Source: an uncultured bacterium (lineage in GTDB: Bacteria > Hydrothermota > Hydrothermia > B15-G9 > WFZT01). From it: DNA of 64,000 bases. Both the position numbers and the translations under genes were made by a program. The stretch covers positions 18,258 through 82,257 of the forward strand of contig CAZNDM010000062.1 in NCBI GenBank assembly GCA_964571845.1. The letters are read 5' to 3'. Shown here piece after piece: positions 6,532 to 60,523 of the stretch. How positions within the stretch are numbered: the first letter of the stretch is position 1; each line of letters starts with the position of its first letter. The notes under the pieces were generated by a model. The model was not told where the DNA came from, did not search any database, and was given only the letters and a program-made list of their open reading frames with translations.

Positions 6532-9402
6532 CTATTTAACTATCATCAACCTCTGAATAGCTCTCGTCTCCCCAGCTCTAAATTCTACAAAGTAAACTCC
6601 AGCTTTCAATCCGCGTAAGTTCATGTCTATCGTGTGGGGGCCAGCCCCAAGTGTTCCCCTGAACACCTTTCTAACCGCTCTTCCACTGATATCGTACAGG
6701 CTGATCTCAACATCCTGCCTGCTCGCGAGCGTGAAGCTCAATGTGCTGAACCCTCTTGTTACATTGGGAGCCAGCTTCAAAGGCACAAATCCGGGCTGAA
6801 CCTGACTCTCCTCAACACTAACAAGGTAGGCATGGTAGGCTGAATCAACATTGGCGTAGTAAGCACCAAGAGATACGCCACCGACAATTGCAAACACAAC
6901 TGAATCTTCCTGGCCCGGTGCAAGGGAGAATGGTCCAGCTGAAACAACGACACTGTAATCGTTTGCTGATGTCTGGTTACCGTAGTGCAAAATTCCCGAC
7001 ATGAATTTCCATTCATTCTGGTCCGTCATTCCCGTGTCCGGATAGACATAGGTTGGGTTGGAGATGGTGCTTATATTTGCAACATTGTCCCTTGGATAGA
7101 GCAGGGTTATACCAACTGCGGGGCTGTAGTTCAGGGGCGTCATGAAAGCTGTGTACCTTGTAGTGTCAACAAAGGCGAAGTTCTGGGATGGATCCTGCCC
7201 TATATCAAAGTCAATAAACTGAGCTGCATAGAGGTTATCAAGTGATGATGTGCCGTTGTTTCTGAAAACATACTTCATTATCACAAAATCATTTATCCCA
7301 TCCCTTGAAAATCCGTAGGCTATCTGCTCGACAGTAACATTCTGTGGATTCGGGTGCCCGGAATCTGACATCATACCCCAGATCTCCTGATTCCCGACTG
7401 CTGGTGGAATGACATAGTAGAGCCTTCCAAGAGGATCCGTTGTATAAACCCAGTCTCCATCCTCTGTTCCGTGTTCATACCAGTTGTCAACGAGATATGT
7501 GGAGTCATTACCAAAGGCGAGTGAGCCATAGAAGAGTGTGTTGGATCCGTTCTTTGGATAAATAAACCCATTCCCCATCAGCTGATCTGAAGACATAAAG
7601 CCGATGCCGCCGTTGTCAGTTACTGTAAGGATGCAGTTCCCGGTGTCAATATTGGCAAAGTCGAATCTTGGAGTACCAATTTCAAGTGAAAATTCGAGGT
7701 CGGTGGTGTAAGAAGTTGAAGTTTCGATGTGGAGGACAAAGTTGACAGTGGTCCCGGATGGAGTTGAAGGTGAAACATAGAGGGTGAACGGATCTGCCTG
7801 GTTGCTCACTGTATCGTTGCGAGCAATATCGCCGAAGTTACCCACAGAGTCAAGGATTGTAACATCCTTTGAGCCGAGTCTTAGATAACCAACAGCCGAA
7901 TGGGCAGTAGAGTCAGCAAGATTGGCAAGGTAAACGATTACATTTGCAGTGTCTCCCGGATCCAGTCTTCCGTTGTTATCGTCCACGACAACATTGATCA
8001 GAGCCAGATACGGCTGATCCGGAGCCGGAGTTAGCTCTATTGCAGCAAGCACATCCAGACGGCCCCAGCCGTAGTCATTGTTCGGGAATGTGTATCCGGG
8101 CACATGGTAAGCGGAATTTGTAAGTATGGAATAAATCTGATAGTAATCGAGAACAGGGTTCTTGGACAGGATAAGTGCAATGGCGCCTGTAACATGAGGG
8201 GCTGACATGGATGTTCCGTCCCATGTCTGGTAACCGCCTCCGGGAACTGATGAGTAAATACTTTGACCTGGTGCCACTATGTCCGGTTTTATGAAATTCC
8301 AATCGGGTCTGCTCCAGTAGGTCTGATCATTCCAGGGATAAGCATTGGGAGCGGGTCCCCTCTGAGAAAAGCTCGTCACGGCATCTGTTCTCGTGGTTGC
8401 TCCCACACCGATTACAGTGGGATAGTTACCCGGTGAACTCGCCCTTATATGCGGGCAGTTCATGTCATAGTTTCCAATTGAGAAAACGGGGATAAGTCCA
8501 AGTGACCTTATTGTCCAGATTACATTCCAGTATGTGGTTGACATCGAGTCACATGAACCCCAGGAATTGTTTATAACCCTGAGGTTGACACCTGAGTCAA
8601 CCACGAGACTGCCGAACCACTGGAAAGATCTTGTAATCCAGCTTGAGTAACCGCCAGACGATGTAAACGCCTTGGCAGCCACAAACATCGCACCCGGGGC
8701 AACTCCTATGTCCCTTGTGAATGGTCCGTAACCGTCTCCTCCCAGTATGGTTCCCATGGTGTGGGTACCGTGACCATTGTCATCGTAAGGAGCGGGAAAA
8801 TTCCCATGTGTGGCATCATAAAAGTGTCCTGCAAACTTTCCAGAAAGCGCAGGATGTGATGTATCCACTCCGGTGTCGAGATTTGCAACTATTATCCCCT
8901 GCCCTGTGTAACCCAGCCTCCAGACACTATCCGCATTTATCTTACTTATGTTCCAATAAACAACTTTTGGATCAGCTGATTGGGTGTTACGGGCAGGTAA
9001 AGCTGTTAAAAACGCCTTACTGTCAAGCTCAATCCTCGCAACATCCTCTCTTTCCGCAAGTCTGTAAATAACATCCTTAGTAGCTTTGACATAAACAGCA
9101 TTGATAATCCAGAAACCCTCTTTTTCCATGACTCTGTCTGCATTCGCATCAAGGAATTCGAGAATCGGCCTCTGGGACTCCTTTGCGAGACTTCTGAGGT
9201 ACTCTACCTCAGTCTTCCTATCTCCCTTAAACATCTTTTCCAGATCCTGATAGGATGGCTGCTCTGCGGGGTACACCATCACTCTAATAAACTCGTCGCT
9301 GCCAGCTTTTTCCAGGACCTTCTGCAGATCCTCTGTAATCGTTGCCTTTGCGTTTAGTACTGTGAACATCAGCAAAGACAACACGACCATCAACTTCTTC
9401 AT
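6532..9402 (-). CDS. Secreted subtilisin-like serine protease (peptidase S8) with an I9 propeptide and a T9SS C-terminal sorting domain
   Basis: There is a signal peptide. The S8 catalytic triad motifs are present: DTGVDTSHPAL (Asp), HGTHTMGTILGG (His) and GTSMSAPHVTGAIALI (Ser). The C-terminus GVYFVEFRAGETRAIQRLMIVK is typical of a T9SS type-A CTD. Confidence 0.85.
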   Translation of the reverse strand: MKKLMVVLSLLMFTVLNAKATITEDLQKVLEKAGSDEFIRVMVYPAEQPSYQDLEKMFKGDRKTEVEYLRSLAKESQRPILEFLDANADRVMEKEGFWIINAVYVKATKDVIYRLAEREDVARIELDSKAFLTALPARNTQSADPKVVYWNISKINADSVWRLGYTGQGIIVANLDTGVDTSHPALSGKFAGHFYDATHGNFPAPYDDNGHGTHTMGTILGGDGYGPFTRDIGVAPGAMFVAAKAFTSSGGYSSWITRSFQWFGSLVVDSGVNLRVINNSWGSCDSMSTTYWNVIWTIRSLGLIPVFSIGNYDMNCPHIRASSPGNYPTVIGVGATTRTDAVTSFSQRGPAPNAYPWNDQTYWSRPDWNFIKPDIVAPGQSIYSSVPGGGYQTWDGTSMSAPHVTGAIALILSKNPVLDYYQIYSILTNSAYHVPGYTFPNNDYGWGRLDVLAAIELTPAPDQPYLALINVVVDDNNGRLDPGDTANVIVYLANLADSTAHSAVGYLRLGSKDVTILDSVGNFGDIARNDTVSNQADPFTLYVSPSTPSGTTVNFVLHIETSTSYTTDLEFSLEIGTPRFDFANIDTGNCILTVTDNGGIGFMSSDQLMGNGFIYPKNGSNTLFYGSLAFGNDSTYLVDNWYEHGTEDGDWVYTTDPLGRLYYVIPPAVGNQEIWGMMSDSGHPNPQNVTVEQIAYGFSRDGINDFVIMKYVFRNNGTSSLDNLYAAQFIDFDIGQDPSQNFAFVDTTRYTAFMTPLNYSPAVGITLLYPRDNVANISTISNPTYVYPDTGMTDQNEWKFMSGILHYGNQTSANDYSVVVSAGPFSLAPGQEDSVVFAIVGGVSLGAYYANVDSAYHAYLVSVEESQVQPGFVPLKLAPNVTRGFSTLSFTLASRQDVEISLYDISGRAVRKVFRGTLGAGPHTIDMNLRGLKAGVYFVEFRAGETRAIQRLMIVK

Positions 9403-21977: not shown

Positions 21978-22601
21978 TTAAAACACCAAAACCGGCCCAA
22001 GAGATATCGTGAAGATCTTTGTATTGATGTCGTTGTAATCCGTTGTCGTGAACACAAGATCGAAGTTCAGATTCAGGTCTATTCCAAGCTTCTTCCTCGG
22101 CTGCACATGGAATCCTGCACCAAAGCTCAGTCCCACCGAGTTGTGCGTCGCCTTATCCTTTGTACCCTGTCCCACATTTTTAACCTCCGTTGACACCATG
22201 TACAGACCACCTCCACCCTGGAGATAGGGCATAAGTGGCCTGTTGGGAAGTGTGAGATAGTATCTCACAATCCCTTTTATTGCCAGAATCTTGTCGTAAA
22301 CCTTCTGAACATGCGGATCTATCGTTCTGTTACCGGCTTTGTTTATCTTGTAGCTTGCATTGGATATACCAAGCATCGTGAGGATATTCTTTGTTAATCC
22401 AAAGGAGAAGAATCCTGTCAGGTTAAATCCATTTTCGCCTCCAAGTGCTATTCCCCTATCCTCAGGGAACATGTCGGGCATGTCACCAATGGGTATCCCG
22501 ATACCCGCATAACCGTGTACTGTGAATTTGTTCATGAAATTGTACGAATAAACATTTCCCGTGACCATAAACAATGCCAATATTACAAGGTATTTCCTCA
22601 T
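21978..22601 (-). CDS. Outer-membrane beta-barrel protein (OmpA-like small beta-barrel/porin family)
   Basis: A signal peptide (MRKYLVILALFMVTGNVYS) is followed by alternating amphipathic beta-strand patterning over about 200 aa, with a C-terminal aromatic residue (…LGPVLVF). Confidence 0.6.
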   Translation of the reverse strand: MRKYLVILALFMVTGNVYSYNFMNKFTVHGYAGIGIPIGDMPDMFPEDRGIALGGENGFNLTGFFSFGLTKNILTMLGISNASYKINKAGNRTIDPHVQKVYDKILAIKGIVRYYLTLPNRPLMPYLQGGGGLYMVSTEVKNVGQGTKDKATHNSVGLSFGAGFHVQPRKKLGIDLNLNFDLVFTTTDYNDINTKIFTISLGPVLVF

Positions 22602-23358: not shown

Positions 23359-25521
23359 GTGATGGATGTCGAAAAAGTCATAAAGAGAGTGGAGGAGCTT
23401 TATTACGACGGGAAATTTGAGGAAGGCTTAAAACTCCTTGAAGAAATCCCTGACGAGGAAAAACCTGAGTTCGCCTATTTGCTCCTCGGTGTGGGCAATA
23501 AATTTTTGAATAGATTCTATGAAGCCGAGCTTTTTTTAAACAAAATATTGAATTCAAGTGATCCCAAAATCAGAAGTTACGCACGCTGGCAGATTGGCGC
23601 CATTGAAATTTACAAGGGTAACATGGAACGGGGGATAAATCTGCTCAAAGAAATTGAGCCTGAGATGAGGAAAACGCCACAATATGCGTCTTTTATCTTC
23701 GATCTCGTTGAAGGACTGTATTTAAGAAACGAGATTGATGAGTGCATCGAATACCTACAGAAGGCTCTAAAGTTTTCCAGAGAGAGAGGTGATTTAAACC
23801 TGATTGTTACTGCAATTTCCAACCTTGCCCTTGCTTATGATACAAAGGGGGATATCAAAAACGCCCTCACAATGTATCTTGAAGCTGCAAAAATAGCCGA
23901 AAGACAGGACATTTTACACATAGCCTGTTCAACCCTTGTAAATCTTGCTGAGCTCTATGCAGAACTCGGAGATTTTGAAAGTGCATTCAAAACCATAGAG
24001 AGAATTAAAAAGAAAAAATGTCTGAGCTATGAACCCAAACGAGGAATCACCTTATCTGGCATTGCTAAAGTGTATCTCCTGTCAGATAGATTGAAAGACG
24101 CCCGTAAGACACTCACCTTTTTACACGACATTTTACTCGAAAGGGACAACAGCGTTGAGCATGTCACCTATCATATCCTTCAAACACTTCTCAAGTTCAA
24201 AGAAGGTGCCCTTACAGATGTGGAAAACCATATTGAGTACATTCTCGAAAACTGGGAAGCTAAAGATTCGTTTGAATACAGGATAGCAAAATTTTTTAAA
24301 CTCTACATGGAGGCATATTCTGGTCGAGAAATAAATCTATCCGAAATCGAGGAAGTTGTTCACGGACTGTGCAGTGATATGATCGTAATCTCACCCCTCT
24401 ATGTTAAAGTTCTACTCGATTTCGGCAATAAAGAGAAAGCCCTCTCGGTAATGGACGAAATTTCCGATTGTCTGAGGAAAAGGTATGGCAAAACGGGATA
24501 CTTCACATTCTTCAAAGATGAGCTCAAAGAGGTTATAAGAAACCTTTCAAGGGACATAAGATCACCCGAGTTGCTGTTGAAAACCGGGACACTCCTTGCA
24601 GATCGAGAGATACTCGAAAATCTCTTCAAAAGATTTGAGATTACAGAAATTATAGACGAGCTGCGGAAAAATCCGGTCTTCCACCCACATCTCTTCCTCA
24701 CACTAAAATCCCAGCTAAAAAAAGAACCTCACAGGGAGGCGTATCACAAACTCGTGAGGGAGTACCTTTCAAAAAATTCAATATCGATAATCACATTCGG
24801 TCATCTTGAAGTTTACATTGGCCCTTACAAACTCACACCAAAAGACTGGAAAAGGCCTGTAACCCGTGATCTTATAAAATTTTTCATTGTTAACAAAAAC
24901 AAGCTCATTCCGCGTGAGGTCATTTATGAGGCACTATGGCCCGGAGAAGATCCACAGAAAACCTCAAGCAAATTCAGGGTTTACATCTCAATTCTTAGAG
25001 ATGTAATTGAGCCCTGGCTGCTCAAAGACGAAAAGCCCCGAATAATAATTTACACCGAAGGTAAGTACCTCTTTTCAACGGAAAACATCAACATAGATGT
25101 TGAGGATTTTGAAAAACTCGTTGCAGACGGCCTGAAATCCATGGACAGTGCTGAGGCGATGTACAATCTCGAAAAAGCAGTGGAACTCTACAGAGGCGAT
25201 TTCCTGGAGGACGATATCTACAGCGATTTCATTTACATTGAGAGGGAAAGATTGAGAAACATTTTCTTCCGTGCAGTCAACAGACTGAAGGAACTTTACG
25301 ATGAAAAAGGGAATACAGGGAAGGCGAGAGTCCTGCTTGATAAAGCATTTTTCGTTGATCCAACAAACGATACCGTGGCATACGATTATATCGAACTTCT
25401 TCTCAAAATAGGTGAAAGAGCCAACGCAAGGAGAATCTTGGAAATCCACAAAGAAACCCTGAAAAAGAGATACGAAATTGAACCCTCTGAGAAAATCCTG
25501 AAACTTATTGGAGAAAGCTGA
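23359..25521 (+). CDS. TPR-repeat protein with a C-terminal SARP-like module (OmpR-type winged helix + bacterial transcriptional activator domain)
   Basis: The N-terminal ~470 aa are TPR-like helical repeats. The C-terminus has ...ITFGHLEVYIGPYKLTPKDWKRPVTRDLIKFFIVNKNKLIPREVIYEALWP..., an OmpR/SARP-type winged helix. This is followed by DVEDFEKLV...LYRGDFLEDD...YEIEPSEKILKL, which matches the DnrI/AfsR activator-domain (BTAD) pattern. Confidence 0.55.
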   Translation: MMDVEKVIKRVEELYYDGKFEEGLKLLEEIPDEEKPEFAYLLLGVGNKFLNRFYEAELFLNKILNSSDPKIRSYARWQIGAIEIYKGNMERGINLLKEIEPEMRKTPQYASFIFDLVEGLYLRNEIDECIEYLQKALKFSRERGDLNLIVTAISNLALAYDTKGDIKNALTMYLEAAKIAERQDILHIACSTLVNLAELYAELGDFESAFKTIERIKKKKCLSYEPKRGITLSGIAKVYLLSDRLKDARKTLTFLHDILLERDNSVEHVTYHILQTLLKFKEGALTDVENHIEYILENWEAKDSFEYRIAKFFKLYMEAYSGREINLSEIEEVVHGLCSDMIVISPLYVKVLLDFGNKEKALSVMDEISDCLRKRYGKTGYFTFFKDELKEVIRNLSRDIRSPELLLKTGTLLADREILENLFKRFEITEIIDELRKNPVFHPHLFLTLKSQLKKEPHREAYHKLVREYLSKNSISIITFGHLEVYIGPYKLTPKDWKRPVTRDLIKFFIVNKNKLIPREVIYEALWPGEDPQKTSSKFRVYISILRDVIEPWLLKDEKPRIIIYTEGKYLFSTENINIDVEDFEKLVADGLKSMDSAEAMYNLEKAVELYRGDFLEDDIYSDFIYIERERLRNIFFRAVNRLKELYDEKGNTGKARVLLDKAFFVDPTNDTVAYDYIELLLKIGERANARRILEIHKETLKKRYEIEPSEKILKLIGES

Positions 25522-26890
25522 ATATAATCACTCCCCTCTTGGTTCCAGCATAAAGATTTCTGCCGTCAAAATAGAGAGATTTAATCACAGGAAGACTGAA
25601 CCCCGGAGTATATCTTTCAAATCCCAGATCCTTCAGATTGAGAATGTATAGCCCATCCGGTGCACCTATAAAAATTTTATCATCTGCCACAACCATAGGA
25701 TAATCAAATCCACGGGACGGTTTGAAAGGTACAGGTAGTTTATCGACAATTCCGTTTTTAAACTCCAGGATTCCAATGTCTGATAAAACATAAAGCCTGC
25801 CACCTGAAACCGCGGCTGAGTATATGGGAGCAAATTTGTTGTATTTTCTTTGAGGCTGTAATTCTCTCGAATAGATTTTGCCGTCCATCAGAAAAAGGGG
25901 AGAATCTTCATAAATCACCATTTTCGATATTTCCAAAGGAATTTTCAGTCTGGACAGAACATTGCCAGCAGGTGTTACCTCAAGCAATCTCCCCGACATT
26001 TGAACGAAGAGCAAGCCATCGAATACACCCAGGAGTTTCCCATTGTCCAGGAATTTCCTGATCCACCTATTCTTCAGAACAAAAATTCCACATCTGCTGC
26101 TAAAATAAAGGGAACTGTCGAGTGGCGAGATCATCTCGACATCCGGGCAATCTGTGCGTATAAAGCTCCAGAACCTGCCATTCTTCAATGCAATACCACC
26201 GTTTCCGGCAATAAAGATCTTCCCGCTAATTCCAGTAATACAGTTGACCTCAGAAAAGGGGAGTCCGATCTGTATGGAGTCTCGGACAATTTTCAGGTTA
26301 AAATCGTACCTGTAAATTCCCTTTTTATCCGTCCCCACCCAGAGAGTGTTGAAATCTCGGTAAAAATAGGTAAAGTTGACCTTGCCAGCCAGTGGATCAT
26401 AGAAAAAGAACGGGGCAAGGAATGCCACCTTCAGACTATCCCTCGTCAGTGAATTGAGCCGCCCCACCCAGACAGTACCACTTTCAGGCTTTCTATTCCC
26501 CAATCTGAACCCTGAAGTTGTGAAGGCGATTATTTCTCCGTTGTTCTCCACATAAATTTTATCACAGCATATACCGAGAGAGGTCGCAGGCCCGGCAGAG
26601 GCAAGAAAAGTTACATCCTCAGAAGTGGTCGTCCATCTATAGAGATTCCCAAAAACATCAATGAAAAACACACTCAGGAGATTCTGCATCACAGCAAATT
26701 TAACGGGAGTTTCCGTTAAAACGGATCTCTCCATACGGTTGTCGAAAAGGTTGTAAGTGTAGATACCACCAGGAGTTGAAACGAGCAATCTGTTGTTTTG
26801 CCTGACCAGAGAATTTATGTGCAAAAATTCACCGATTTTCGAGACATTTGCTGAGTGGATGGAAAATGCCAGAAGAATACTAAAAATCAT
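25505..26890 (-). CDS. Hypothetical secreted beta-propeller-like protein
   Basis: A signal peptide is followed by repeated ~45-aa segments rich in G/Y/F/D (GGIYTYNL..., GKIFIAGNGGIAL..., GRLYVLSDIGILEF...). These resemble the Reg_prop/two-component-regulator propeller repeats. No catalytic motif is seen. Confidence 0.4.
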   Translation of the reverse strand: MIFSILLAFSIHSANVSKIGEFLHINSLVRQNNRLLVSTPGGIYTYNLFDNRMERSVLTETPVKFAVMQNLLSVFFIDVFGNLYRWTTTSEDVTFLASAGPATSLGICCDKIYVENNGEIIAFTTSGFRLGNRKPESGTVWVGRLNSLTRDSLKVAFLAPFFFYDPLAGKVNFTYFYRDFNTLWVGTDKKGIYRYDFNLKIVRDSIQIGLPFSEVNCITGISGKIFIAGNGGIALKNGRFWSFIRTDCPDVEMISPLDSSLYFSSRCGIFVLKNRWIRKFLDNGKLLGVFDGLLFVQMSGRLLEVTPAGNVLSRLKIPLEISKMVIYEDSPLFLMDGKIYSRELQPQRKYNKFAPIYSAAVSGGRLYVLSDIGILEFKNGIVDKLPVPFKPSRGFDYPMVVADDKIFIGAPDGLYILNLKDLGFERYTPGFSLPVIKSLYFDGRNLYAGTKRGVIIFSFLQ

Positions 26891-28674: not shown

Positions 28675-31600
28675 TCACTTCAGTATCACAATCTTCCTCG
28701 TCTTACTGTAATTTCCAGCCTCAATGCTCAAAAAGTACACTCCTCCACGAATCTTTTCCGTACTCCAGTCGATACTGTGGTTTCCTGCCTCCATCCTTCC
28801 CTCGTACAACTTTGACACAACCCTGCCACTCACATCATACAGTCTAATTTTGACATCCGTTGCCGCTGGAATAACAAATGAGATCTTCCCTCTTCTAACC
28901 ACTGGATTCGGTGTTACATCGAAGAAGAACTTTACGGGTTTCAGAGCACCCTCACCCACGCCCACTGTCGGGGGCAATGTCGTGAATTTGATGGCTTTAC
29001 CTGCTGATATTCCAGTTGCGAGTCTATCCGAGACACCGTCATAGTAAATCTGGATTCCGTCTGTTTCTGAAGCGTTTTCAATTCCTGTCGTGAAATCATC
29101 CTGCATTGGATCAGATAGATACTGGAAAACAATTTCCCCGTCACCTGTAGGTGTTGTGTAGTACATTGGATCGTAGAGGAGCACCTGAAATGTCTCCACC
29201 TCGTTTGAATGGGCAAAATGAGGCACCTGATACCATTCCACGATAAAAATGTGGTTGTCAGAGTCATAGTAATATGCGACCTGGCCACCTCTTGAGGGAT
29301 TGAGGTCGTCCCACAGGGGAGCAATCATATTTGATGGACCATCACTGTTGGGTATGCCAGAGTTGCTGAAATCTCTTGCATTCTCACTGCCCATAGCAAG
29401 GTTTCCATTTGATCCGATGGTAATCTGGGTGAATGATGCACCGTAATAGTTAAATGTGAATGGGAGATTAACGAGCTGGTCATCGTCGTCTCCGAGCTGG
29501 ATGACCGTTCCGCTACCGCCAGCCGCAGGTGCAATTTCTATCCAGTTGAAAACCGGTGCCGGTGAATAGGAAGAGTCGTTGTTCTCGTAAGCATAATAAC
29601 CGTAGCTATCAGGTCCTGATGGATCATTCACCGTCATCTGACCTATTGTGAGTGTGTAATTAATACTCTTGGTATAACCGGATGAATCCACGAGTGTAAT
29701 TGTCAGTTCTGCACTATGCTCTCTCGGTGTGGATGGAGATGCCTGAACAAAGAACATTGTGTCGCTCACCTCGCCTCCGTTGGCTGGAATAGAGGGGATA
29801 AAGGCGGTCGAATCAAGGACCTGGAGAAATGTGTCCTGTGTGGACAGAGAGACTGAGACATTGCCGGCGTCCTGTGTCCCAATATTCCTAAGAGTTACGA
29901 GAAACCTTCCACTTTCACCGGGATCGATCACCCCATTTCCCGACTCATCAAGAACGGAGATTCCGGTAAAGCTAACAACCACACCTTCAAGCGGCAGGTC
30001 CTTTTCAATGGTGAGATCGTCGATATACCATCCGTCCCGTGTAATTGAGCCGTCAGAGGTAATGAGAAATCTGATGTACACGGTGGTTGAACCCACAAAG
30101 GGCGAGAGATTGACAAAAACCTCCTCCCATGTGCTTTGCGAGCCGTTAACAGAAGCGAGATTTGTCCATTCGCCATTGGGGTCTGTCGCAGCCTGGACAT
30201 AACCATAGTCAAAGCCACTTTCAAATTCATACCTCTGCCAGAAGTGGAGTCTTGCGAAGTAGGCGTCAGAAAGATCTATTGGTGTCGCAAGCATTGCATA
30301 GTAATTTGCGTTGTTTGGATACTGACCATTGGGGGAATCGGTGAGACTTCCATTCCCCGAATGGGCGTAAGATGTGGTGATTCCCCAGCTACCTGTTAAT
30401 ACCCAATCGGGAAGAGAAGACTCAAAGTCCTGTACATACCAGGGGTAGTAAGTGGGCTGTCCTATGACAACCGTAATCGTGTCAACTTTGGTGTATCCGG
30501 TCATGGATGTGTCACTACCTGTAATTGTGATGACAAATTGAGCGGCGAGACCGGCACGCCATGTTGAATCAACTGAAAATGAGAATCCATCTCCTGAAAC
30601 TATAGAGTCATGCGGGATATCACCGTAAAATGAGGAGTTGTCCGTGATCGTGATAAGCGGGTTATCGGTTGATATCGTGGCATTCACATTGAGGACATCA
30701 AGTCCCAGGTTTCTAAGAGGAATGGTCATTGTTACACTCTCTCCTGGATCCGGCATACCATTACCATTTCCAGACGCATCATCATACACAGGTTGAAGTA
30801 ATCTCAGGTAAGGAGCGTCAAGAGTCGGAGTTGATTCAATGACTTTCAGGGCATTTATACGACCCCACCCATAGTCGTTGTTGGGATAGGTATTGCCTGC
30901 TGGATGATCGACACCATAGTTTGTGAGAATATCATAAATGGTACTGTAGTCGAGAGATGGATTGAGTTCAAACATAAGGGCAATGACACCGGTTACATGG
31001 GGAGTGGCCATGGATGTTCCATCCCAGCTTTCGTAACCGCCGCCGGGTGTGCTTGATCTAACATTGACTCCTGGAGCTGAAATATCGGGCTTGATAAAAT
31101 TCCAGTCTGGTCTTGACCAGAGTGTCGTATCTGACCAGGGGTACTGGTTGGGAGCCGGTCCCCTCGAGCTAAAGCTCGCAATATTATCATTAATGTCTGT
31201 TGCTCCAACTCCGATAACATTTGGAAAGTTACCGGGTGTTCCAGCAGATCCACTACCGGGACCAGAATTACCGCTGGCAAAAACCGGGATTATGTCAAAC
31301 TCGTGCCAGGCCCTCACAAACGGTAAAAAGGTCGTGTCTGTTTCATCCGTACTACCCCATGAATTAGACACAGCCTTTATGTCCACACCTGAATCGACTT
31401 TCAAGGACACGAACCACTGGAAACATTCGATAATATCCTGATCCTGCCCGCTTCCTCCGGAATTAAATGCCTTGGCAGATGCAATCTGTGCCCTGTAAGC
31501 CACGCCAATGTCGTTTGTAAACGGACCAGGTCCATCACCACCAGCAATTGTCCCGGCCACATGTGTTCCGTGGCCGTGATCGTCATACGGGGTCGTCCTG

Positions 31601-32169
31601 TCATTCACAGCATCAAAGAAATAACCTGAGAAGTTGCCAGATAAGGCAGGGTGTGATGGATCTATTCCAGTGTCCATTGTTCCGACTATTACACCGTCTC
31701 CTGAGAGGCCATAGGCAGACCAAACTGAATCTGCTTTTATTTTCGTGATATTCCATTCAACAGACTTCTCCTGGGGTATGTCTTTAAAAGACTTTTTGGG
31801 CATAATGATGTGTCTCTCACGCACAACATCGACGAGAGCGACATCTTCTCTCTTCGCAAGCTCGACAATTACCTCTGGTGTGGCTTTGACATATAGCATG
31901 TTCACAAGCCAAAAACTCTCATACTCGGCAACATCTTCGGAACTCAGGAATGATATGACATCCCTCTGTGAATTCCTTGCGACGGTTTTCAGGACTTCGG
32001 CTTTGGCTTTGTAGCCTTTAATACCTGAAAGGTCCGCCTGCTGTTTCATCCAGACAAGAGCCTGAATACTCTCTCCAGGCCCTGCCTTGCTCAGTTTCTC
32101 CATCATGGCATCAGAAAGTTTCCCTGCATACAGGGAAGTTACCATGACCAGTGCAAGCAGATACTTCAT
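28675..32169 (-). CDS. Large secreted subtilisin-like serine protease (peptidase S8) with an I9 propeptide, extra beta-rich domains and a T9SS C-terminal sorting domain
   Basis: There is a signal peptide. The S8 motifs are DTGIDPSHPAL (Asp), HGTHVAGTIAGGDG (His) and GTSMATPHVTGVIALMF (Ser). The C-terminus GGVYFLSIEAGNYSKTRKIVILK is a T9SS CTD. Its N-terminal half is paralogous to 6532..9402. Confidence 0.85.
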   Translation of the reverse strand: MKYLLALVMVTSLYAGKLSDAMMEKLSKAGPGESIQALVWMKQQADLSGIKGYKAKAEVLKTVARNSQRDVISFLSSEDVAEYESFWLVNMLYVKATPEVIVELAKREDVALVDVVRERHIIMPKKSFKDIPQEKSVEWNITKIKADSVWSAYGLSGDGVIVGTMDTGIDPSHPALSGNFSGYFFDAVNDRTTPYDDHGHGTHVAGTIAGGDGPGPFTNDIGVAYRAQIASAKAFNSGGSGQDQDIIECFQWFVSLKVDSGVDIKAVSNSWGSTDETDTTFLPFVRAWHEFDIIPVFASGNSGPGSGSAGTPGNFPNVIGVGATDINDNIASFSSRGPAPNQYPWSDTTLWSRPDWNFIKPDISAPGVNVRSSTPGGGYESWDGTSMATPHVTGVIALMFELNPSLDYSTIYDILTNYGVDHPAGNTYPNNDYGWGRINALKVIESTPTLDAPYLRLLQPVYDDASGNGNGMPDPGESVTMTIPLRNLGLDVLNVNATISTDNPLITITDNSSFYGDIPHDSIVSGDGFSFSVDSTWRAGLAAQFVITITGSDTSMTGYTKVDTITVVIGQPTYYPWYVQDFESSLPDWVLTGSWGITTSYAHSGNGSLTDSPNGQYPNNANYYAMLATPIDLSDAYFARLHFWQRYEFESGFDYGYVQAATDPNGEWTNLASVNGSQSTWEEVFVNLSPFVGSTTVYIRFLITSDGSITRDGWYIDDLTIEKDLPLEGVVVSFTGISVLDESGNGVIDPGESGRFLVTLRNIGTQDAGNVSVSLSTQDTFLQVLDSTAFIPSIPANGGEVSDTMFFVQASPSTPREHSAELTITLVDSSGYTKSINYTLTIGQMTVNDPSGPDSYGYYAYENNDSSYSPAPVFNWIEIAPAAGGSGTVIQLGDDDDQLVNLPFTFNYYGASFTQITIGSNGNLAMGSENARDFSNSGIPNSDGPSNMIAPLWDDLNPSRGGQVAYYYDSDNHIFIVEWYQVPHFAHSNEVETFQVLLYDPMYYTTPTGDGEIVFQYLSDPMQDDFTTGIENASETDGIQIYYDGVSDRLATGISAGKAIKFTTLPPTVGVGEGALKPVKFFFDVTPNPVVRRGKISFVIPAATDVKIRLYDVSGRVVSKLYEGRMEAGNHSIDWSTEKIRGGVYFLSIEAGNYSKTRKIVILK

Positions 32170-33235: not shown

Positions 33236-33272
33236 AAATTTGTGGACGCTATTCAAAAGGGAGGTTTCGTGC

Positions 33273-34415
33273 ATGATTGAACTATTGCGAAATTTAACTA
33301 TCCTCGTGCTGGTTTCATTAAAACCAGCTCCGGCAACCAATGTTAGAGCCTTTGACACTCCCAATGATGCTGGAGGAAGTGTTATCGTAAAATGGGACCT
33401 CTCAAAAGACGATTCTATCGTGACAAAGTATGAGATCATCAGGATCGTGGGGAGTCCTGATGGCAAAAGGGTAACTGCTGGATTTGTACTTCGTGGTACA
33501 AACACTTACAGGGATGTGGATCTTAAAAACGGTGAAAAATACTACTACATGGTTAGGACATGGGCAGACGGAGAATATTCGGACTCTGAGATAACAGCTG
33601 AGCCAGCGATACCCCGTCCCCAATGGTTCCATACCAAACGAGTCGTTGCACTTATCATCCTCCTCGTATTCGGGTCCCTGTTTTTCTATTACTTGAAGCT
33701 GGCAAAAGAAGGTGCTCCACTCTGGATCAGAAAGATTGCCGGTCTTGAGGCAATTGATGAGGCTGTTGGTAGATCAGTTGAGATGGGACGGCCTATTCTT
33801 TACATCCTCGGACTTGGATTCATATCAGACATACCGACCATTGCAGGTCTTGCCATACTTAAGAGAGTTGCCAAAAAGGCCGCTGAATACGAGGCAGATA
33901 TTATTGTTCCCAACTATGATCCCATCGTGATGGTTGCTGCGCAGGAAACGGTAAAGGAAGGATACATGGAAGCAGGAAGGCCCGATCTGTTTAACGAATC
34001 AAATATTATGTTTCTCACTCAGGACCAGTTTGGGTACGCCGCCGGTGTTGATGGAATAATGGTAAGGGAGAAACCTGGAGCCATCTTCCTTCAGGGTCTA
34101 TTCTATGCTGAATCCCTTATCCTTGCTGAGACAGGGCACTCCATAGGTGCGATACAGATCTCCGGAACAACATCGGTAACCCAGCTCCCATTCTTTATTG
34201 CTGCAACAGACTACACACTTATCGGAGAGGAAATGTATGCAGCAAGTGCTTATTTAACGAGGGATCCACTGGCACTTTCTACGCTAAAGGCAGAGGACAT
34301 CATGAAAGCCCTATTTATCGGCCTCATGGCACTGGGCACAATTTTCGAAACTATCGCCCTTCTGACTGGTAATCCGGGTTTTCATGTTCTTAAAAACTTT
34401 TTCAACATGTTTTAA
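33273..34415 (+). CDS. Membrane protein with an N-terminal extracytoplasmic fibronectin type III-like domain, one TM helix and an uncharacterised ~230-aa C-terminal domain
   Basis: The start MIELLRNLTILVLVSL (signal-like) is preceded by an AGGGAGG RBS. An FN3-like beta-sandwich follows (VRAFDTPNDAGGSVIVKWDL...YEIIRIVG...GEKYYYMVRTWADGEYSDSEIT), then the TM helix VVALIILLVFGSLFFYYL. The C-terminal domain has no motif I recognise. Confidence 0.5.
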   Translation: MIELLRNLTILVLVSLKPAPATNVRAFDTPNDAGGSVIVKWDLSKDDSIVTKYEIIRIVGSPDGKRVTAGFVLRGTNTYRDVDLKNGEKYYYMVRTWADGEYSDSEITAEPAIPRPQWFHTKRVVALIILLVFGSLFFYYLKLAKEGAPLWIRKIAGLEAIDEAVGRSVEMGRPILYILGLGFISDIPTIAGLAILKRVAKKAAEYEADIIVPNYDPIVMVAAQETVKEGYMEAGRPDLFNESNIMFLTQDQFGYAAGVDGIMVREKPGAIFLQGLFYAESLILAETGHSIGAIQISGTTSVTQLPFFIAATDYTLIGEEMYAASAYLTRDPLALSTLKAEDIMKALFIGLMALGTIFETIALLTGNPGFHVLKNFFNMF

Positions 34416-34427
34416 CGGAGGAAGACT

Positions 34428-35213
34428 ATGAAAAGGGAAGTTCCAATAGCAATTACCTTTATTTCCGGTGTATTACTCGTGATTGCGTTCTTTATCCCGC
34501 ACGAGCCTTTTGGAAGCCTCGAGCAGAGATTCAACGACTGGTACATAATCGTATCTGGATTTGCACTTATCCTCGGAATTGATTCTTTGCTTCTGCACCA
34601 CTGGAACAAGGTCTCAAGAAGAAGCAAAGATTGGTTCCATTCATTGAGTTTGATCATCGCCTTTTTCGTAACCCTGATATGGGGATTTTATTCCGGGATC
34701 AAGACGGGGCATTTTCTCTCAGCACAGTCAACATTCAGACAGTACTTCTACATGTATGTCTTCGTCCCGTTGCAGGCAACGATGTTCTCACTTCTTGCGT
34801 TTTTCATTGCATCAGCAGCGTACCGTGCGTTCCGGGCTGACAGATTTGAAGCTGCTCTGCTCCTCTTCTCAGCAGGAATTGTCATGCTCGGAAGAGTTCC
34901 CCTCGGAAATTCTGTAGCTCCATACATGGTTGCTCTCGTATTCCTCATTTTTGCCTTCCTGCTGTACACTGACGGCCGAAAAGAAGTTGATCCTATGAGG
35001 AAATATCTCAAGATTGGGGGAGCCGTAGTGAGTCTTCTCCTGATTTACCCTGTTGGATGGTTCTTCCTTCACTATACGGCACAGACAGCGGGATGGATAA
35101 TGAATATACCACAGCTTGCGGCCAAAAGAGGGATCTTTGTCGGGATAGCTCTCGGTGGTATTGCGATGTCTCTCAGAATTATCCTTGGCATAGAAAAAAC
35201 TTATCTGAGGTGA
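34428..35213 (+). CDS. Uncharacterised polytopic membrane protein (~7 TM)
   Basis: Hydrophobic helices run throughout (VPIAITFISGVLLVIAFFI..., IIVSGFALILGI..., LSLIIAFFVTLIWGF... and so on). It starts 12 bp after the previous stop. Confidence 0.5.
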   Translation: MKREVPIAITFISGVLLVIAFFIPHEPFGSLEQRFNDWYIIVSGFALILGIDSLLLHHWNKVSRRSKDWFHSLSLIIAFFVTLIWGFYSGIKTGHFLSAQSTFRQYFYMYVFVPLQATMFSLLAFFIASAAYRAFRADRFEAALLLFSAGIVMLGRVPLGNSVAPYMVALVFLIFAFLLYTDGRKEVDPMRKYLKIGGAVVSLLLIYPVGWFFLHYTAQTAGWIMNIPQLAAKRGIFVGIALGGIAMSLRIILGIEKTYLR

Positions 35214-35217
35214 GAAA

Positions 35218-36036
35218 ATGAAATACATTGAGAAACTTGCAAGAATTGACAGAAGGATAATTTATCTGATCCTCTTTTTAACGGTTCTGCTGCCTTATCT
35301 TTTTAAGATCAGTCTGCCGATGAAACCACTTCCTGAGGTGGTTCAGGCTTATAAGGAGATAGACAAACTTCCCGCTGGATCAGTTGTTATGATTTCAATA
35401 GACTACGATGCGGCTTCCATGCCTGAGGTCCAGCCCATGCTGTACGCGATTCTTCGACACTGTTTCAGCAAAGACCTGAAAATCATCATGCTTGGTCACT
35501 GGCCTCTTGGAATCCCTCTTGGTATTGCAGCTCTCGAGGATGTGGCGAAAGAATACGGTAAAAAATACGGTGAAGATTATGTGTTTCTCGGATTCAGACC
35601 GGGGGTTGCCGCTGTAATGATCAACATTGGTAAAGAAATCAGATCCGTGTTCAGAGAGGATTACTGGGGTACTCCGCTCGATTCTCTACCAATGATGCGG
35701 AATGTCCACACATACGATGATATCGCCATCCTCGTGGGACTTGAGGCAGGAGCGACCGGAGACTACTGGGTACAGTATGCTCAGGCGAGATACAATCAAA
35801 AGATCATACTGGGTGGAACAGCAGTGGTGGCGCCTGACTGGTATCCCTATTTACAGTCCAACCAGATCGTGGGCCTGATAGGCGGTCTTAGAGGTGCTGC
35901 TGACTACGAGAACCTTGTTCATAACAAAGCTCTTGCTTACTACGGAATGACTCCTCAGGCAGCAGTTCACATTCTCATCGTCATATTCATAATTCTCGGT
36001 AACATCGGATACTTAGCATTAAGGAGGAGGAAGTAA
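35218..36036 (+). CDS. Uncharacterised bitopic membrane protein (N- and C-terminal TM helices flanking a ~200-aa soluble domain)
   Basis: An N-terminal TM helix (IIYLILFLTVLLPYLF) and a C-terminal TM helix (VHILIVIFIILGNIGYLAL) flank a soluble domain. It lies 4 bp after the previous stop. Confidence 0.5.
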   Translation: MKYIEKLARIDRRIIYLILFLTVLLPYLFKISLPMKPLPEVVQAYKEIDKLPAGSVVMISIDYDAASMPEVQPMLYAILRHCFSKDLKIIMLGHWPLGIPLGIAALEDVAKEYGKKYGEDYVFLGFRPGVAAVMINIGKEIRSVFREDYWGTPLDSLPMMRNVHTYDDIAILVGLEAGATGDYWVQYAQARYNQKIILGGTAVVAPDWYPYLQSNQIVGLIGGLRGAADYENLVHNKALAYYGMTPQAAVHILIVIFIILGNIGYLALRRRK

Positions 36037-36037
36037 A

Positions 36038-37145: not shown

Positions 37146-37148
37146 AAC

Positions 37149-38180
37149 ATGCTCAACGCCTTTTGGGTTACAACTTTATATTTTTTTCTGGGAGCGAACT
37201 CTGTTCTGCCGGTAACTTCGCTTTCAATTGCTGATTCTCTATACAATCCCGGTGTATTCAAAAACACGGAAAAATTCAGTTTAAATTTAATCATAGAACC
37301 TTCGTTTATCACTGAGATCGAAGACGAGTACGAATATGCATACGACCAGTTCAACTCGACTATTGGAAAGATAAATACATACAGCGGTCAGTTTTCCTAT
37401 GTGAAGCCGGTGAACATGCTACTTGGATGGACCTATAAAAACTTCAGCTTTGTAGCTGGATACGAACTTTACAAATCCTTTGAGAAGAGGGTGGATAGGG
37501 ATATCTACAATAGAGATAACATGAGGATTGTGCACGAACACTTTGTTTCAAAAGGGGGAATCAGTGGAATTTATGCAGGATTCGGAATAAAAAACCGTCG
37601 TATCGGGGTTGGCACCAGAATTGTTAGATATACTTACGACCTCTCACTGGACGATGATACAGACCTGAATAGTGAAAAAACTGGTATTGAGATCTTTTCA
37701 AATGTAAACATTACCAGGAGGATCAGAGTTTCAACATTTTTCAGCCCGGATGTGGACTTTTTCAAGGCTCATCCTTCGGAGCAGTACTTGAATTATCTAC
37801 AGGAAAACTTCCTCAACTACCACAGACTGCCAGACAGAAAGGGACTGGAAATCGTTTATCTTCCAGCAACGGACATTGTTACCATGACATCATTCACATT
37901 AATGAAAGAAGGGGAATCAAGATACATCCATCTGGATTTCAAGCACAACTTCCTTAATGTAAACGCCTTTGAATTTGGAGGAGGACTCTTCAGAGATAAA
38001 AACGACAGATGGGGCAGCTTTGTCAATTTCGGTCTTGGAATGTTGTATAAAAATCTTGGATTTGACACGCAGGTGAGGTACAGTTTCGTTGCCGACGAAG
38101 GCTCCAGTTTGTGTGAAAATCCATGTGAGAAAAATTTCTCTCTTGTAACCTTAAATCTGGTTTTGAGGTACAGGTTATGA
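37149..38180 (+). CDS. Putative outer-membrane beta-barrel protein (family unassigned)
   Basis: A signal peptide (…FFLGANSVLP) is followed by a Tyr/Asn/Asp/Gly-rich sequence with alternating hydrophobic strands. It lies 3 bp after lspA. Confidence 0.4.
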   Translation: MLNAFWVTTLYFFLGANSVLPVTSLSIADSLYNPGVFKNTEKFSLNLIIEPSFITEIEDEYEYAYDQFNSTIGKINTYSGQFSYVKPVNMLLGWTYKNFSFVAGYELYKSFEKRVDRDIYNRDNMRIVHEHFVSKGGISGIYAGFGIKNRRIGVGTRIVRYTYDLSLDDDTDLNSEKTGIEIFSNVNITRRIRVSTFFSPDVDFFKAHPSEQYLNYLQENFLNYHRLPDRKGLEIVYLPATDIVTMTSFTLMKEGESRYIHLDFKHNFLNVNAFEFGGGLFRDKNDRWGSFVNFGLGMLYKNLGFDTQVRYSFVADEGSSLCENPCEKNFSLVTLNLVLRYRL

Positions 38181-39058
38181 CCGCAATACTAATTTTTGTG
38201 GTCCTGGGGTTTTCTCAAAAATCGTTCAGCTATAATTACCTTCTGCTTCCATTTGGAAGTGATGGTGCGGTCTTTCGAACTGCACTCGTGTCGGACCCGA
38301 CATCCGATTTTTCAGTTTACTACAATCCGTCCTTCAAATTCCACTCAAAGCTGGCTACATTTGCCTCTTCCTATCTTGTGGGATCGAGCTACGGAGGTAT
38401 TCTGTTTTCTCCAGCAAAAGACATAACTGCTGGAGTGCTGTTCTTTTCCGACGGTGGACAGGACGAAGTGAACTATGAGGGAATAAAGATCGGGACATAC
38501 TCATCCACTTATCTCTCACTCTTTGCGAGCACACCATTACCCTACACACACAGGATAGGTGAAAGGGTATTAGTTTCTGGTGTTACCGGGAAACTGCTTT
38601 ATCAGTCCATTGCCGATAGAAAATCTCTTGCAGTTGCAATTGATGGCGGGATTTATCTTCCATTCAATTCGAGGGTAAAAATTGGTGCATCTGTGAGGAA
38701 CATCGGTATCGAAATCAAACATTTCTACGAAAAGAACTACTTTCCACCGCCTGTAATTTCCATAGGGGGTTTTGTCAAATTATCAGAAAAACTCGTGTTT
38801 CTCCTTGCCGGTGGTCTGGAGCTGAATTACGGCTTTATTTTCGACGCAGGAATCCGATTATCTCCTGTCAGGATGTTTCAAATTTCAGCAGGATACTCGC
38901 TCAAAGGACGGGAGCTGAATACAGGAGCAAATCTTGACATCTTGAATGGACTTGCAGGCGGATTTATTTTTAAGGTCAAAGATCTCAAAGTGAGTTATTC
39001 AATTATGCCCATGGGGGAACTTGGACTCACACATTATGTTGGCATAGTTTACAGATAA
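38177..39058 (+). CDS. Putative outer-membrane beta-barrel protein (family unassigned; possibly T9SS/envelope-associated)
   Basis: A signal peptide (MTAILIFVVLGFS) is followed by amphipathic beta-strands to the C-terminus (…GLTHYVGIVYR). It overlaps the previous gene by 4 bp. Confidence 0.4.
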   Translation: MTAILIFVVLGFSQKSFSYNYLLLPFGSDGAVFRTALVSDPTSDFSVYYNPSFKFHSKLATFASSYLVGSSYGGILFSPAKDITAGVLFFSDGGQDEVNYEGIKIGTYSSTYLSLFASTPLPYTHRIGERVLVSGVTGKLLYQSIADRKSLAVAIDGGIYLPFNSRVKIGASVRNIGIEIKHFYEKNYFPPPVISIGGFVKLSEKLVFLLAGGLELNYGFIFDAGIRLSPVRMFQISAGYSLKGRELNTGANLDILNGLAGGFIFKVKDLKVSYSIMPMGELGLTHYVGIVYR

Positions 39059-39059
39059 A

Positions 39060-39518: not shown

Positions 39519-39561
39519 ATCTTAACACATCAGGAGGGAAGTCCCTGAGGAGGAAGAAAAC

Positions 39562-46068: not shown

Positions 46069-46404
46069 TCCTATCAATTATAGCCATCTGGTTTCATTAA
46101 AGCAAGACTATAGATTTACATTTAAGACGCCCAAATCAGTCGTATTTAAAGGTAATCCTGAAATTGTCATCCCTTAATCTTTTAGCATAGAAAATAATTC
46201 AAAACCTGAAATTTGTTTGTATAGTGAAAATTTTCAAAAGTCGTGTTTATAGGTTAACTTACAGGCTAAATCCATCTCGTGGACTTTTTATTTTCCCTGT
46301 GATTTTTTGAGAACAAGGTTGGCGAGAATTTCGGATTCAGGTAGATTAAAAGCCTGTTTTTTGTTGATTTATGGAGGTTTTTGAACTATAATTTAAACCT
46401 CGTG

Positions 46405-47428: not shown

Positions 47429-47442
<14 letters not shown>
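46405..47442 (+). CDS. recF: DNA replication and repair protein RecF
   Basis: MQISRIFLHNFRNYE...GINVIVGPNGIGKTNLLESIAYL is the Walker A motif. The SMC-like signature and Walker B ...LPVLILDEP follow. Confidence 0.85.
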
Positions 47443-50825
<3,383 letters not shown>

Positions 50826-58725: not shown

Positions 58726-59678
58726 TCCAGTTCTACATACTTTCCGATTCTGACGTACTTCTCGCGTCTTGCTTCTATCAACTTTCCAGCTGGAGTTGGC
58801 AGGAGTTCCTCAACAGCTTTTAAAATCGTTGATTTTATTTTCTCCGCTGTCCAGTTGATGTCATTGTGTGCTCCCCCAAGAGGTTCTTCGATGATACCAT
58901 CAATGATTCCGAAAGAATAGAGATCCTGAGCCGTAAGTTTCAGTGCCTCAGCGGCTCTTGGCGCCTGTTTACCGTCCCTCCAGAGAATGGACGCACAACC
59001 CTCGGGTGAGATTACTGAATAAATGGTGTATTTCAGAGCAAACACCCTATCTCCAAGAGCTATTGCAAGGGCGCCACCTGATCCTCCCTCCCCGATAACC
59101 ACAGTAATGAGAGGGGTTTTGAGGGACAGCATAACTTTTAGATTTTCGGCTATAGCAAATGCCTGCCCCCTCTCCTCAGCTCCCACTCCGGGATAAGCGC
59201 CAGGCGTGTCAACAAAGGTGATAACAGGAAGACCAAATTTTTCAGCAAGCAACATCAACCGCTTTGCCTTTCTATAACCTTCAGGATGGGGCATCCCGAA
59301 ATTTCTGTAGATCTTCTCCTTCGTGTCCCTCCCTTTCTCCTGTCCGATGATCATCACCTTATGGTTCTCCAGGGTAGCAAGACCACCAATAATTGACGGA
59401 TCATCCCTGAAATTTCTGTCTCCATGCAATTCAACAAAGTCTTTAAAAATCAGGTGGATGTAATCAATGAAATGGGGTCTGTCCGGGTGTCTCGCTATCT
59501 GAACGATCTGCCATCGGGTGAGATTTCTGTAAACTTTTTCCTTTAATCTTCTCGCTCTTTCCTCAAGTTCCTTTATCTCTTTCTCGAGTTCCGGCGATTC
59601 TTTTACCTTCTCCTTGAGCTCGTTAATCTTTTTTTCAACCTCGTATATGGGTCTTTCAAAATCCAATAACCTCTTCAT
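58722..59678 (-). CDS. accA: Acetyl-CoA carboxylase carboxyltransferase alpha subunit
   Basis: MKRLLDFERPIYEVEKKINELKE... is followed by the carboxyl-transferase domain (...TFVDTPGAYPGVGAEERGQAFAIA...). The protein is 318 aa. Confidence 0.9.
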   Translation of the reverse strand: MKRLLDFERPIYEVEKKINELKEKVKESPELEKEIKELEERARRLKEKVYRNLTRWQIVQIARHPDRPHFIDYIHLIFKDFVELHGDRNFRDDPSIIGGLATLENHKVMIIGQEKGRDTKEKIYRNFGMPHPEGYRKAKRLMLLAEKFGLPVITFVDTPGAYPGVGAEERGQAFAIAENLKVMLSLKTPLITVVIGEGGSGGALAIALGDRVFALKYTIYSVISPEGCASILWRDGKQAPRAAEALKLTAQDLYSFGIIDGIIEEPLGGAHNDINWTAEKIKSTILKAVEELLPTPAGKLIEARREKYVRIGKYVELD

Positions 59679-60523
59679 ATCTCAAGCTGGAGATTTATTG
59701 TTTTTAAAGTGCCAAAACCCCTGTCAATGGGCCTGATACCTGCAACCACATTGACGATGGATTTTTTGAATCCAATCCAGATTACGAGAGGCGATACATC
59801 GTTACCCGTTTCATAACCGGCTCCGTAGTTAAAGTATTTAAAAGAATGTGACACCTGTATGAAATTTCTCACATCTCCATTCGTCAAGCTCTGGAAAGCC
59901 CCTTCGTAGGTCAAAACTTTGGAAAAATTCCAGTCAATTCGAAAATTTCTGAAGGTGTAAGTCAGTCCCATACTCCCGAGAATGGGGGCTCTGTATTCAT
60001 TGTAAATGAAGCCCTTTTTAAATCCGATATTTTCGAAGGAGACACCTACTCTGAGATTTTTGATCCTCTCAGGTGTGTATAGCAATCCAACAGATGTGTA
60101 AAATCCACCTGTACTGTTGTTCAAAATTGTCTGATGGAAGTACTGAAGCATGATACCAAGCTTCAGTTCGGGATCAACCTGAAAACTCCTGCCAAACTTG
60201 ATCTCGTAAGCGTAAGGGGAAAACAGGACTTCAGTGTAATCGTCGGGAGTCAGGTCCTGATATTCCAGATCGCCGAACCTATAATAACTGACAGAAAATC
60301 CGTAGTTGTTCCAGTTGAACTGGAATGTCGAGATGCCTGCGTCGGCAATCCAGTCAGTGGATGCGAAAAGAAAAGATCTACCACTACTTAAACCAGCAGG
60401 ATTTCTATTTACAGCGGCAATTCCTGTATCAGACGCCACAGGTACTGTAAAAAATGGCTCCGTATTCAGAAAGTCAAAGCTTGGCTGAACATTGATAATG
60501 GCTGCCAGAATAAAGGCTATCAT
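59675..60523 (-). CDS. Putative outer-membrane beta-barrel protein (family unassigned)
   Basis: A signal-like N-terminus (MIAFILAAIINVQP) is followed by Gly/Tyr/Phe/Asn-rich alternating strands over 282 aa. The gene overlaps accA by 4 bp and lies 9 bp from parB. Confidence 0.4.
   Translation of the reverse strand: MIAFILAAIINVQPSFDFLNTEPFFTVPVASDTGIAAVNRNPAGLSSGRSFLFASTDWIADAGISTFQFNWNNYGFSVSYYRFGDLEYQDLTPDDYTEVLFSPYAYEIKFGRSFQVDPELKLGIMLQYFHQTILNNSTGGFYTSVGLLYTPERIKNLRVGVSFENIGFKKGFIYNEYRAPILGSMGLTYTFRNFRIDWNFSKVLTYEGAFQSLTNGDVRNFIQVSHSFKYFNYGAGYETGNDVSPLVIWIGFKKSIVNVVAGIRPIDRGFGTLKTINLQLEI

Follow-up and report, generated by a model that had tools for sequence, protein, structure and literature searches.

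In the Bacteroidota type IX secretion system (T9SS), the shuttle protein PorV binds the C-terminal domain (CTD) of a cargo at the SprA translocon, after which the cargo loses this domain and is either released or becomes surface attached. In Tannerella forsythia mirolase, as in comparable CTD-bearing S8 proteases of Bacteroidota, an S8 domain is followed by a type-A T9SS CTD. The same order of S8 domain and type-A CTD was found in two proteases encoded within 64,000 nucleotides of DNA from an uncultured thermophilic bacterium (GTDB lineage Hydrothermota; Hydrothermia; B15-G9; WFZT01), namely positions 18,258 to 82,257 of contig CAZNDM010000062.1 (GenBank assembly GCA_964571845.1), a stretch referred to below as the window. 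Protease 1 (6532..9402, minus strand; 956 amino acids, or aa) comprises a signal peptide, an I9-like prodomain, an S8A domain, a CARDB/Ig-like domain, a beta-supersandwich, and a type-A T9SS CTD. Protease 2 (28675..32169, minus strand; 1164 aa) comprises a signal peptide, an I9-like prodomain, an S8A domain, a CARDB-like domain, an InhA-like MAM domain, a second CARDB-like domain, a NIDO domain, and a type-A T9SS CTD. A preliminary description made from the DNA letters (the sequence-only reading) had proposed these open reading frames (ORFs), and its coordinates, strand, lengths, and C-terminal sequences proved exact. We consider it likely that both proteins are S8A endopeptidases that are exported by Sec, fold with the assistance of a prodomain, and cross the outer membrane by a T9SS-type pathway via their type-A CTDs.

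By profile and active-site motif, both ORFs belong to peptidase family S8, subfamily S8A-like. The catalytic domain of protease 1 (aa 167-447; 8062..8904, minus strand) matched PF00082 with an E value of 5e-49, and that of protease 2 (aa 157-436; 30862..31701, minus strand) matched it with an E value of 2e-53. The scores were 167.6 and 181.8 bits, respectively, against a cut-off of 21.8 bits, and profile positions 1-288 of 288 were covered. The active site of protease 1 is intact at D176/H211/S398, with N279 also present (DTGVD176, HGTH211, NNSWG279, and GTSMS398), and that of protease 2 is intact at D166/H200/S386 (DTGID166, HGTH200, and GTSMA386). The oxyanion Asn is intact in both proteases, and the catalytic motifs were invariant in the 31 relatives aligned. 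The solved structures nearest to the catalytic domain were subtilisin E, subtilisin BPN', and the 539-aa subtilisin-like serine protease 3afg (E values of 6e-31 to 1e-29). These enzymes have the same S8A-type triad order and oxyanion Asn as the window proteases but lack a T9SS tail, a supersandwich, and MAM/NIDO modules.

The two proteins are paralogous, as had been proposed, with 46% identity across residues 4-580 (BLASTP, E value of 4e-148). Each begins with a hydrophobic N terminus (MKKLMVVLSLLMFTVLNAKA and MKYLLALVMVTSLYAGK) that was judged by inspection to be a Sec-type signal peptide, in agreement with the sequence-only reading. A prodomain of ~125 residues is common to both proteases. 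Its earlier designation as an I9 propeptide holds to the extent that no other Pfam family ranked above Inhibitor_I9 (PF05922) for either N-terminal fragment, but the scores of 13.2 and 13.9 bits lie below the cut-off of 21.2 bits. A precomputed PF05922 match was present in 4 of the best 120 relatives of protease 1, and the alignment to pro-subtilisin E starts at query residue 95, i.e., within the prodomain.

On profile and motif evidence, the C-terminal tails of both proteases are genuine type-A T9SS CTDs. The CTD of protease 1 (aa 878-956; 6535..6771, minus strand) scored 30.2 bits with PF18962 (Por_Secre_tail) and 33.4 bits with TIGR04183, and the CTD of protease 2 (aa 1085-1164; 28678..28917, minus strand) scored 35.8 and 44.2 bits, respectively. 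The cut-offs are 27 bits (gathering score) for PF18962 and 23 bits for TIGR04183, so that the Por-secretion tails called from the sequence were borne out by the TIGR04183 model. The matches to TIGR04183 span residues 878-954 and 1085-1162, ending 2 residues ahead of the stop. The two CTDs are 34% identical to each other (E value of 6e-16) and contain the motif series PNP, YDxxGRxV, GxH or Y, GxYF, and a basic-hydrophobic end (K-x-h-x-h-K), which is kept across the 20 relatives aligned. A CTD hidden Markov model (HMM) built from relatives scored 96 and 103 bits on proteases 1 and 2 and, of the 361 six-frame ORFs in the window, matched these two only. This lineage profile matched 8glk_D (E value of 2.7e-6) and 8glj_D, which are CTDs solved inside substrate-bound SprA-PorV translocon complexes of F. 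johnsoniae, as well as the CTDs of the T9SS cargoes mirolase (8qb1_A; E value of 2.7e-4) and RgpB. Since the profile matches the translocon-bound, mirolase, and RgpB CTDs, the tails are T9SS sorting domains rather than generic beta-sandwiches. Compared with the CTDs of RgpB (P. gingivalis) and of the F. johnsoniae cargoes (8glj and 8glk), the window CTDs form the same Ig-like tail of ~75 to 90 residues with the same motif series at ~20 to 35% identity; for the window proteases, cleavage and attachment are predicted. The CTDs also score on FlgD_ig.

The regions between the catalytic domain and the tail differ between the two proteases. Relative to mirolase, the window proteases contain 400 to 650 extra accessory residues at this position, formed by the supersandwich in protease 1 and by MAM/CARDB/NIDO modules in protease 2. 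The post-catalytic Ig/CARDB-like domain of protease 1 (aa ~465-575; 7678..8010, minus strand) aligns to protease 2 twice, collinearly and at aa 737-843 (28% identity, E value of 3e-7), and the protease 2 copy of the post-catalytic domain has a weak CARDB match. Protease 2 continues with an InhA-like MAM domain (aa 625-724; 29998..30297, minus strand; PF20773, 29.1 bits with a gathering score of 26.9). There follow a second CARDB-like domain (aa 737-843; 29641..29961, minus strand), which is an internal repeat of the post-catalytic domain (CARDB E value of 0.0015 on the isolated fragment), and a NIDO-like domain (aa 915-998; 29176..29427, minus strand; PF06119, 28.6 bits in the whole protein and 34.2 bits as a fragment, with a gathering score of 25). 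In protease 1, the region leading to the tail (aa 573-867, 295 aa; 6802..7686, minus strand) has no Pfam or NCBIfam family match and was identified as a beta-supersandwich from an AlphaFold model and Foldseek. The model, built with a 20-relative alignment, had a pLDDT of 92 and a pTM of 0.91, and Foldseek matched it to the N-domains of GH94, GH15, and GH116 enzymes, aldose 1-epimerase, and YidC-P1 (TMq 0.5 to 0.64, ~12% identity). Fourteen positions of the supersandwich are invariant over 20 WOR-3-type homologues, and the domain is kept in full-length matches from metagenome-assembled genomes (MAGs) of Zixibacteria and Krumholzibacteriota, making it a candidate new domain family. The C-terminal halves of the two proteases are thus different module sets, not insertions in one of them. 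The ~200 residues of beta-rich inserts that the sequence-only reading assigned to the larger protease are instead this different module set. Through these differing modules, the two enzymes probably act on different substrates or engage different surface partners. Three homologues with 49 to 52% catalytic-domain identity (P0107, P0109, and P0119) have dockerin (PF00404) modules where the T9SS CTD would be; one protease core is therefore joined to different surface-display systems in other lineages.

The nearest full-length homologues (72 to 36% identity) are from MAGs named Candidatus Hydrothermae, Hydrothermota, or Hydrothermales and candidate division WOR-3, which NCBI taxonomy lists as the phylum Caldifarciminota directly below Pseudomonadati. 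Among the matches listed, the full protease architecture, including the CTD, was found in WOR-3, Zixibacteria, and Krumholzibacteriota MAGs. Likewise among the matches listed, the CTD HMM was positive in 10 of 80 S8-centred loci across bacteria and archaea: WOR-3 (two), Hydrothermus, Zixibacteria (two), Krumholzibacteriota, Eisenbacteria, Ignavibacteriota, Bacteroidota, and one unclassified MAG. Save for that MAG, these positives belong to WOR-3 and to FCB-type (Fibrobacteres-Chlorobi-Bacteroidetes) lineages only. Further CTD-tagged hydrolases, C10 and C25 peptidases among them, are numerous on WOR-3 contigs, and WOR-3 bins have been reported to rank with those having the most extracellular peptidases (PMC4411801). 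On the complete WOR-3 chromosome CP070834.1 (L134:1-14169), genes for a peptidase C10 and a gingipain-like C25 peptidase (1277 aa) both encode a T9SS CTD, and an 86-aa CTD-only ORF lies immediately upstream of the C25 gene. In a 47%-identity relative, on a 120.9-kb contig (JGI 3300038380; L137:1-12907), five consecutive CTD genes form an island, and two of them encode S8 proteases; the ORFs interspersed among them, of 291 and 260 aa, do not resemble PorV/Q.

A protein identical to protease 1 is encoded on ENA contig k141_412559, and one identical to protease 2 (P0092) is encoded on a 92.9-kb NCBI contig. Independent ENA, JGI, Logan, and NCBI assemblies contain exact copies of window genes, which are therefore no assembly artefact. 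When the best 120 matches to protease 1 were scored against both paralogues, 97 gave the higher score with protease 1 and 23 with protease 2. Of the latter, at least about 15 are full-length orthologues of the protease 2 type (45 to 81% identity over ~1160 to 1190 residues), and the other few are shorter or dockerin bearing and gave near-equal scores with both paralogues. The protease 1-type orthologue series reaches down to ~36% identity. Since separate series of orthologues for the two paralogues extend across the phylum, the duplication is ancient, and the split between the two types predates much of the diversification of the phylum. Proteases 1 and 2 represent two established types of protease and no recent duplication.

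The opposing proposal, that the duplication is recent or that an assembly or binning artefact has left one decaying copy as a pseudo-protease, is scarcely credible: the presence of two similar genes 19 kb apart speaks for it and nothing further does, while it is refuted by the intact triads, the full-length ORFs, and the separate series of full-length orthologues and further opposed by the 46% identity and the verbatim copies in independent assemblies. Very unlikely, too, is a reading in which both proteins act in processing within the periplasm or the cell and their C-terminal domain is a beta-sandwich unrelated to T9SS CTDs. Protease 1 does exceed the Pfam gathering score by a few bits only (30.2 versus 27), but both proteins pass two independent curated models, the lineage CTD profile (96 and 103 bits) matches known T9SS CTDs in the PDB, and the domain stands at the extreme C terminus with the typical basic-hydrophobic end.

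The sequence-only reading had stated that the window contains no T9SS machinery genes while suggesting three ORFs (37149, 38177, and 59675) as candidate T9SS-associated barrels. The statement needs correction, as the window contains two divergent members of the PorV/PorQ family, and the suggestion was apt for the second and third ORFs but not for the first. The ORF at 38177..39058 (plus strand; 293 aa) encodes a divergent PorV/PorQ-family outer-membrane barrel that matched the PorQ model NF033711 (E value of 8.7e-18) and the PorV/PorQ family model NF033709 (PorV_fam; E value of 5.8e-9). A second divergent barrel of this family, encoded at 59675..60523 (minus strand; 282 aa), matched NF033711 with an E value of 3.5e-8 and the family HMM with 80.3 bits (E value of 1.5e-24). 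An exhaustive phmmer search with ORF 38177-39058 yielded 559 representative relatives. All 97 of those aligned matched PorQ and PorV_fam, and 82 and 76 of the 97 matched the NCBIfam models PorV and PorV2, respectively. When single PorQ-like sequences were compared with PDB sequences, nothing useful was obtained, and matches came from the family profile alone, which found PorV (6h3i_F; E value of 3.9e-34) and TodX (~1e-7). The AlphaFold model of ORF 38177-39058 (pLDDT of 95) gave its top TM-scores with the PorV chains 8gl6_F (0.67) and 6h3i_F (0.62), above FadL/TodX. Profile, transitive-homology, and fold evidence together indicate that both ORFs are divergent PorV/PorQ-family proteins, i.e., of the same family as F. 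johnsoniae PorV (6h3i_F and 8gl6_F) and PorQ. They differ from these in length (282 to 293 aa, versus 402 residues in the PDB PorV sequence), in having NCBIfam scores below the cut-offs, and in position: neither lies next to a PorU gene, and one is within a conserved lspA-ORF-PorQ-like-smpB operon. Two other ORFs were considered and rejected. The conserved ORF of 343 aa that lies upstream of the PorQ-like gene (37149..38180, plus strand), to which no family was assigned and whose position is conserved in L085-L089, has no Pfam or NCBIfam match, and hhalign gave a probability of 1.7% for a relation to the PorV/Q family. ORF 21978-22601 scored 17 bits as PorG against a cut-off of 130 and was taken as a generic 8-stranded outer-membrane protein.

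The order lspA, 343-aa ORF, PorQ-like gene, and smpB is conserved in relatives of the window. It forms part of a gene string (33240-41529, plus strand) encoding a DUF6754 protein (391 aa, with an fn3-like N terminus), three small membrane proteins (261, 272, and 214 aa), LspA, the 343-aa ORF, the PorQ-like barrel, SmpB, and an M3 oligopeptidase, and this order is unchanged in a 64%-identity relative (L089). Residues 56-107 of the PorQ-like ORF (38342-38497) have a weak match to the crAss-like phage cargo protein 1 gp45 (7qog_M, E value of 0.006; Pfam crAss_CARG1, E value of 0.3), which is probably due to chance. A different arrangement was seen in metagenome loci with a PorV/PorQ-family gene at their centre: in 17 of 48, the barrel gene adjoins a large same-strand ORF with a type-A-like CTD. 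Such pairs occur among loci L096-L132 (e.g., L101, L107, L112, L116, L122, and L124), often as tandem cargo-barrel-cargo-barrel arrays. Bacteroidota are reported to rely on one PorV for all their type-A cargo, and adjacent PorP/SprF shuttles pair with type-B cargo only (PMC12618676).

A route can be proposed for both proteases. Each protein would be exported by Sec to the periplasm with its N-terminal signal peptide and would fold with the aid of the I9-like prodomain. It would then pass the outer membrane by a T9SS-type pathway through its type-A CTD, and the CTD may finally be cleaved and the protease attached to the surface. The likely role of the enzymes would be extracellular protein degradation feeding a peptide- or amino-acid-using metabolism.

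Several observations weigh against this assignment. Precomputed Pfam annotation and targeted NCBIfam scans of the window, its flanks, and ~0.35 Mb of WOR-3-type contigs, a sample of at most about one-fifth of one genome equivalent, turned up no SprA, GldK/L/M/N, or PorU. The barrels themselves do not reach the curated cut-offs (PorQ, 64.4 bits for ORF 38177 and 32.9 bits for ORF 59675 versus 220; PorV_fam, 36 versus 90), and their genes occupy housekeeping-type positions away from the cargo. The PorV/PorQ superfamily also takes in UPF0164-type and FadL-like proteins, so that membership by itself is no proof of a T9SS role. Full-text searches of the literature found on WOR-3/Hydrothermae returned no mention of T9SS or of secretion systems. 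TIGR04183 has been treated as an FCB-restricted marker (PMC5317091, PMC4737851), and WOR-3 is not among the 17 children of the NCBI FCB clade. The FCB superphylum label given in the sequence-only reading is therefore formally incorrect, since NCBI places Caldifarciminota, to which this WOR-3/Hydrothermia genome belongs, outside that clade.

The absence of core components is a weak negative because the sample is small and the search insensitive: the PorQ-like gene of the window itself has no precomputed Pfam match, and many neighbouring genes likewise have no Pfam match of any kind. For this reason, a T9SS-positive genome stays probable but unproven. The C25 protein with a CTD on CP070834.1 was considered as PorU and rejected, because the PorU model matched over the tail only, which identifies the protein as gingipain-like cargo. 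A homologue search with the CTD profile for PorU and PorZ returned short CTD fragments only, and the neighbours of the metagenome PorV/Q-family genes were cargo, with no core machinery among them. Of six large neighbours scanned, three have CTD-type matches only (two of them to PorZ/PorU models solely over the tails), one is a histidine kinase, and two are giants with no informative match.

These negatives bear on the main rival explanation, which we regard as unlikely, that the tails are T9SS-type CTDs by descent in a lineage that has no canonical translocon and motor. The CTD, possibly with PorV/PorQ-like barrels, would then serve a reduced or different form of outer-membrane export or anchoring, or Ig-like surface attachment. 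Such a view accords with the failure to find a core component in any lineage DNA sampled, with the score of the CTD on FlgD_ig, and with the precedent of Poribacteria, reported to have CTD-like domains but no Por structural genes (PMC3909097). It also accords with the one-to-one pairing of type-A-like cargo with an adjacent PorV/Q-like gene in 17 of 48 loci, all from non-Bacteroidota metagenome DNA, a pairing not described for the type-A cargo of Bacteroidota (PMC12618676). Set against this are the sampling of at most ~20% of a genome equivalent at low sensitivity, the presence in the CTD of all motifs used by the canonical system, its match to translocon-bound CTDs, and the continued presence of PorV-family genes. 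A more specific proposal, which seems quite unlikely, is that WOR-3/Hydrothermia combine many type-A CTD hydrolases and divergent PorV/PorQ-like barrels with a canonical SprA translocon and GldKLMN motor that have been lost or strongly remodelled, giving a reduced or alternative CTD-dependent export. The one-to-one pairs of cargo and PorV/Q-like genes in other uncultured lineages may be a related pattern. We continue to prefer passage of both proteases by a T9SS-type pathway.

Other genes in and beside the window were also noted. On ENA contig k141_412559, immediately to the left of the window (L001:19218-21983), is a gene for a 921-aa protein with precomputed Pfam matches to Tricorn_N, Tricorn_2nd, PD40, and Omp85, an unusual combination of a tricorn-like beta-propeller with an Omp85 barrel. 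Two genes from protease 2, ORF 25505-26890 (minus strand) encodes a repetitive, beta-rich protein of 461 aa with no Pfam or NCBIfam match. The clusters recF-DUF721-gyrB (46381-49608) and rsmG-parA-parB (60532-62742) lie at most 15 kb apart, which suggests a location of the window near the chromosomal origin of replication.

Together with the two PorV/PorQ-family barrels, the proteases form an ordinary cargo arrangement, apart from their occurrence in a phylum for which the full-text searches found no paper on secretion biology. Because the PorV/PorQ-like genes fall far under annotation cut-offs, routine annotation would miss them. The 295-residue supersandwich, conserved in WOR-3, Zixibacteria, and Krumholzibacteriota proteases, has no Pfam family. 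If the core machinery is absent, then how CTD proteins leave the cell becomes a real puzzle. If instead the proteases cross the outer membrane by a T9SS-type pathway, the range of the T9SS cargo signal and, by implication, that of the system would grow to include the recently cultured phylum WOR-3 (Caldifarciminota), and secreted thermophilic subtilases would be part of its known richness in extracellular peptidases.

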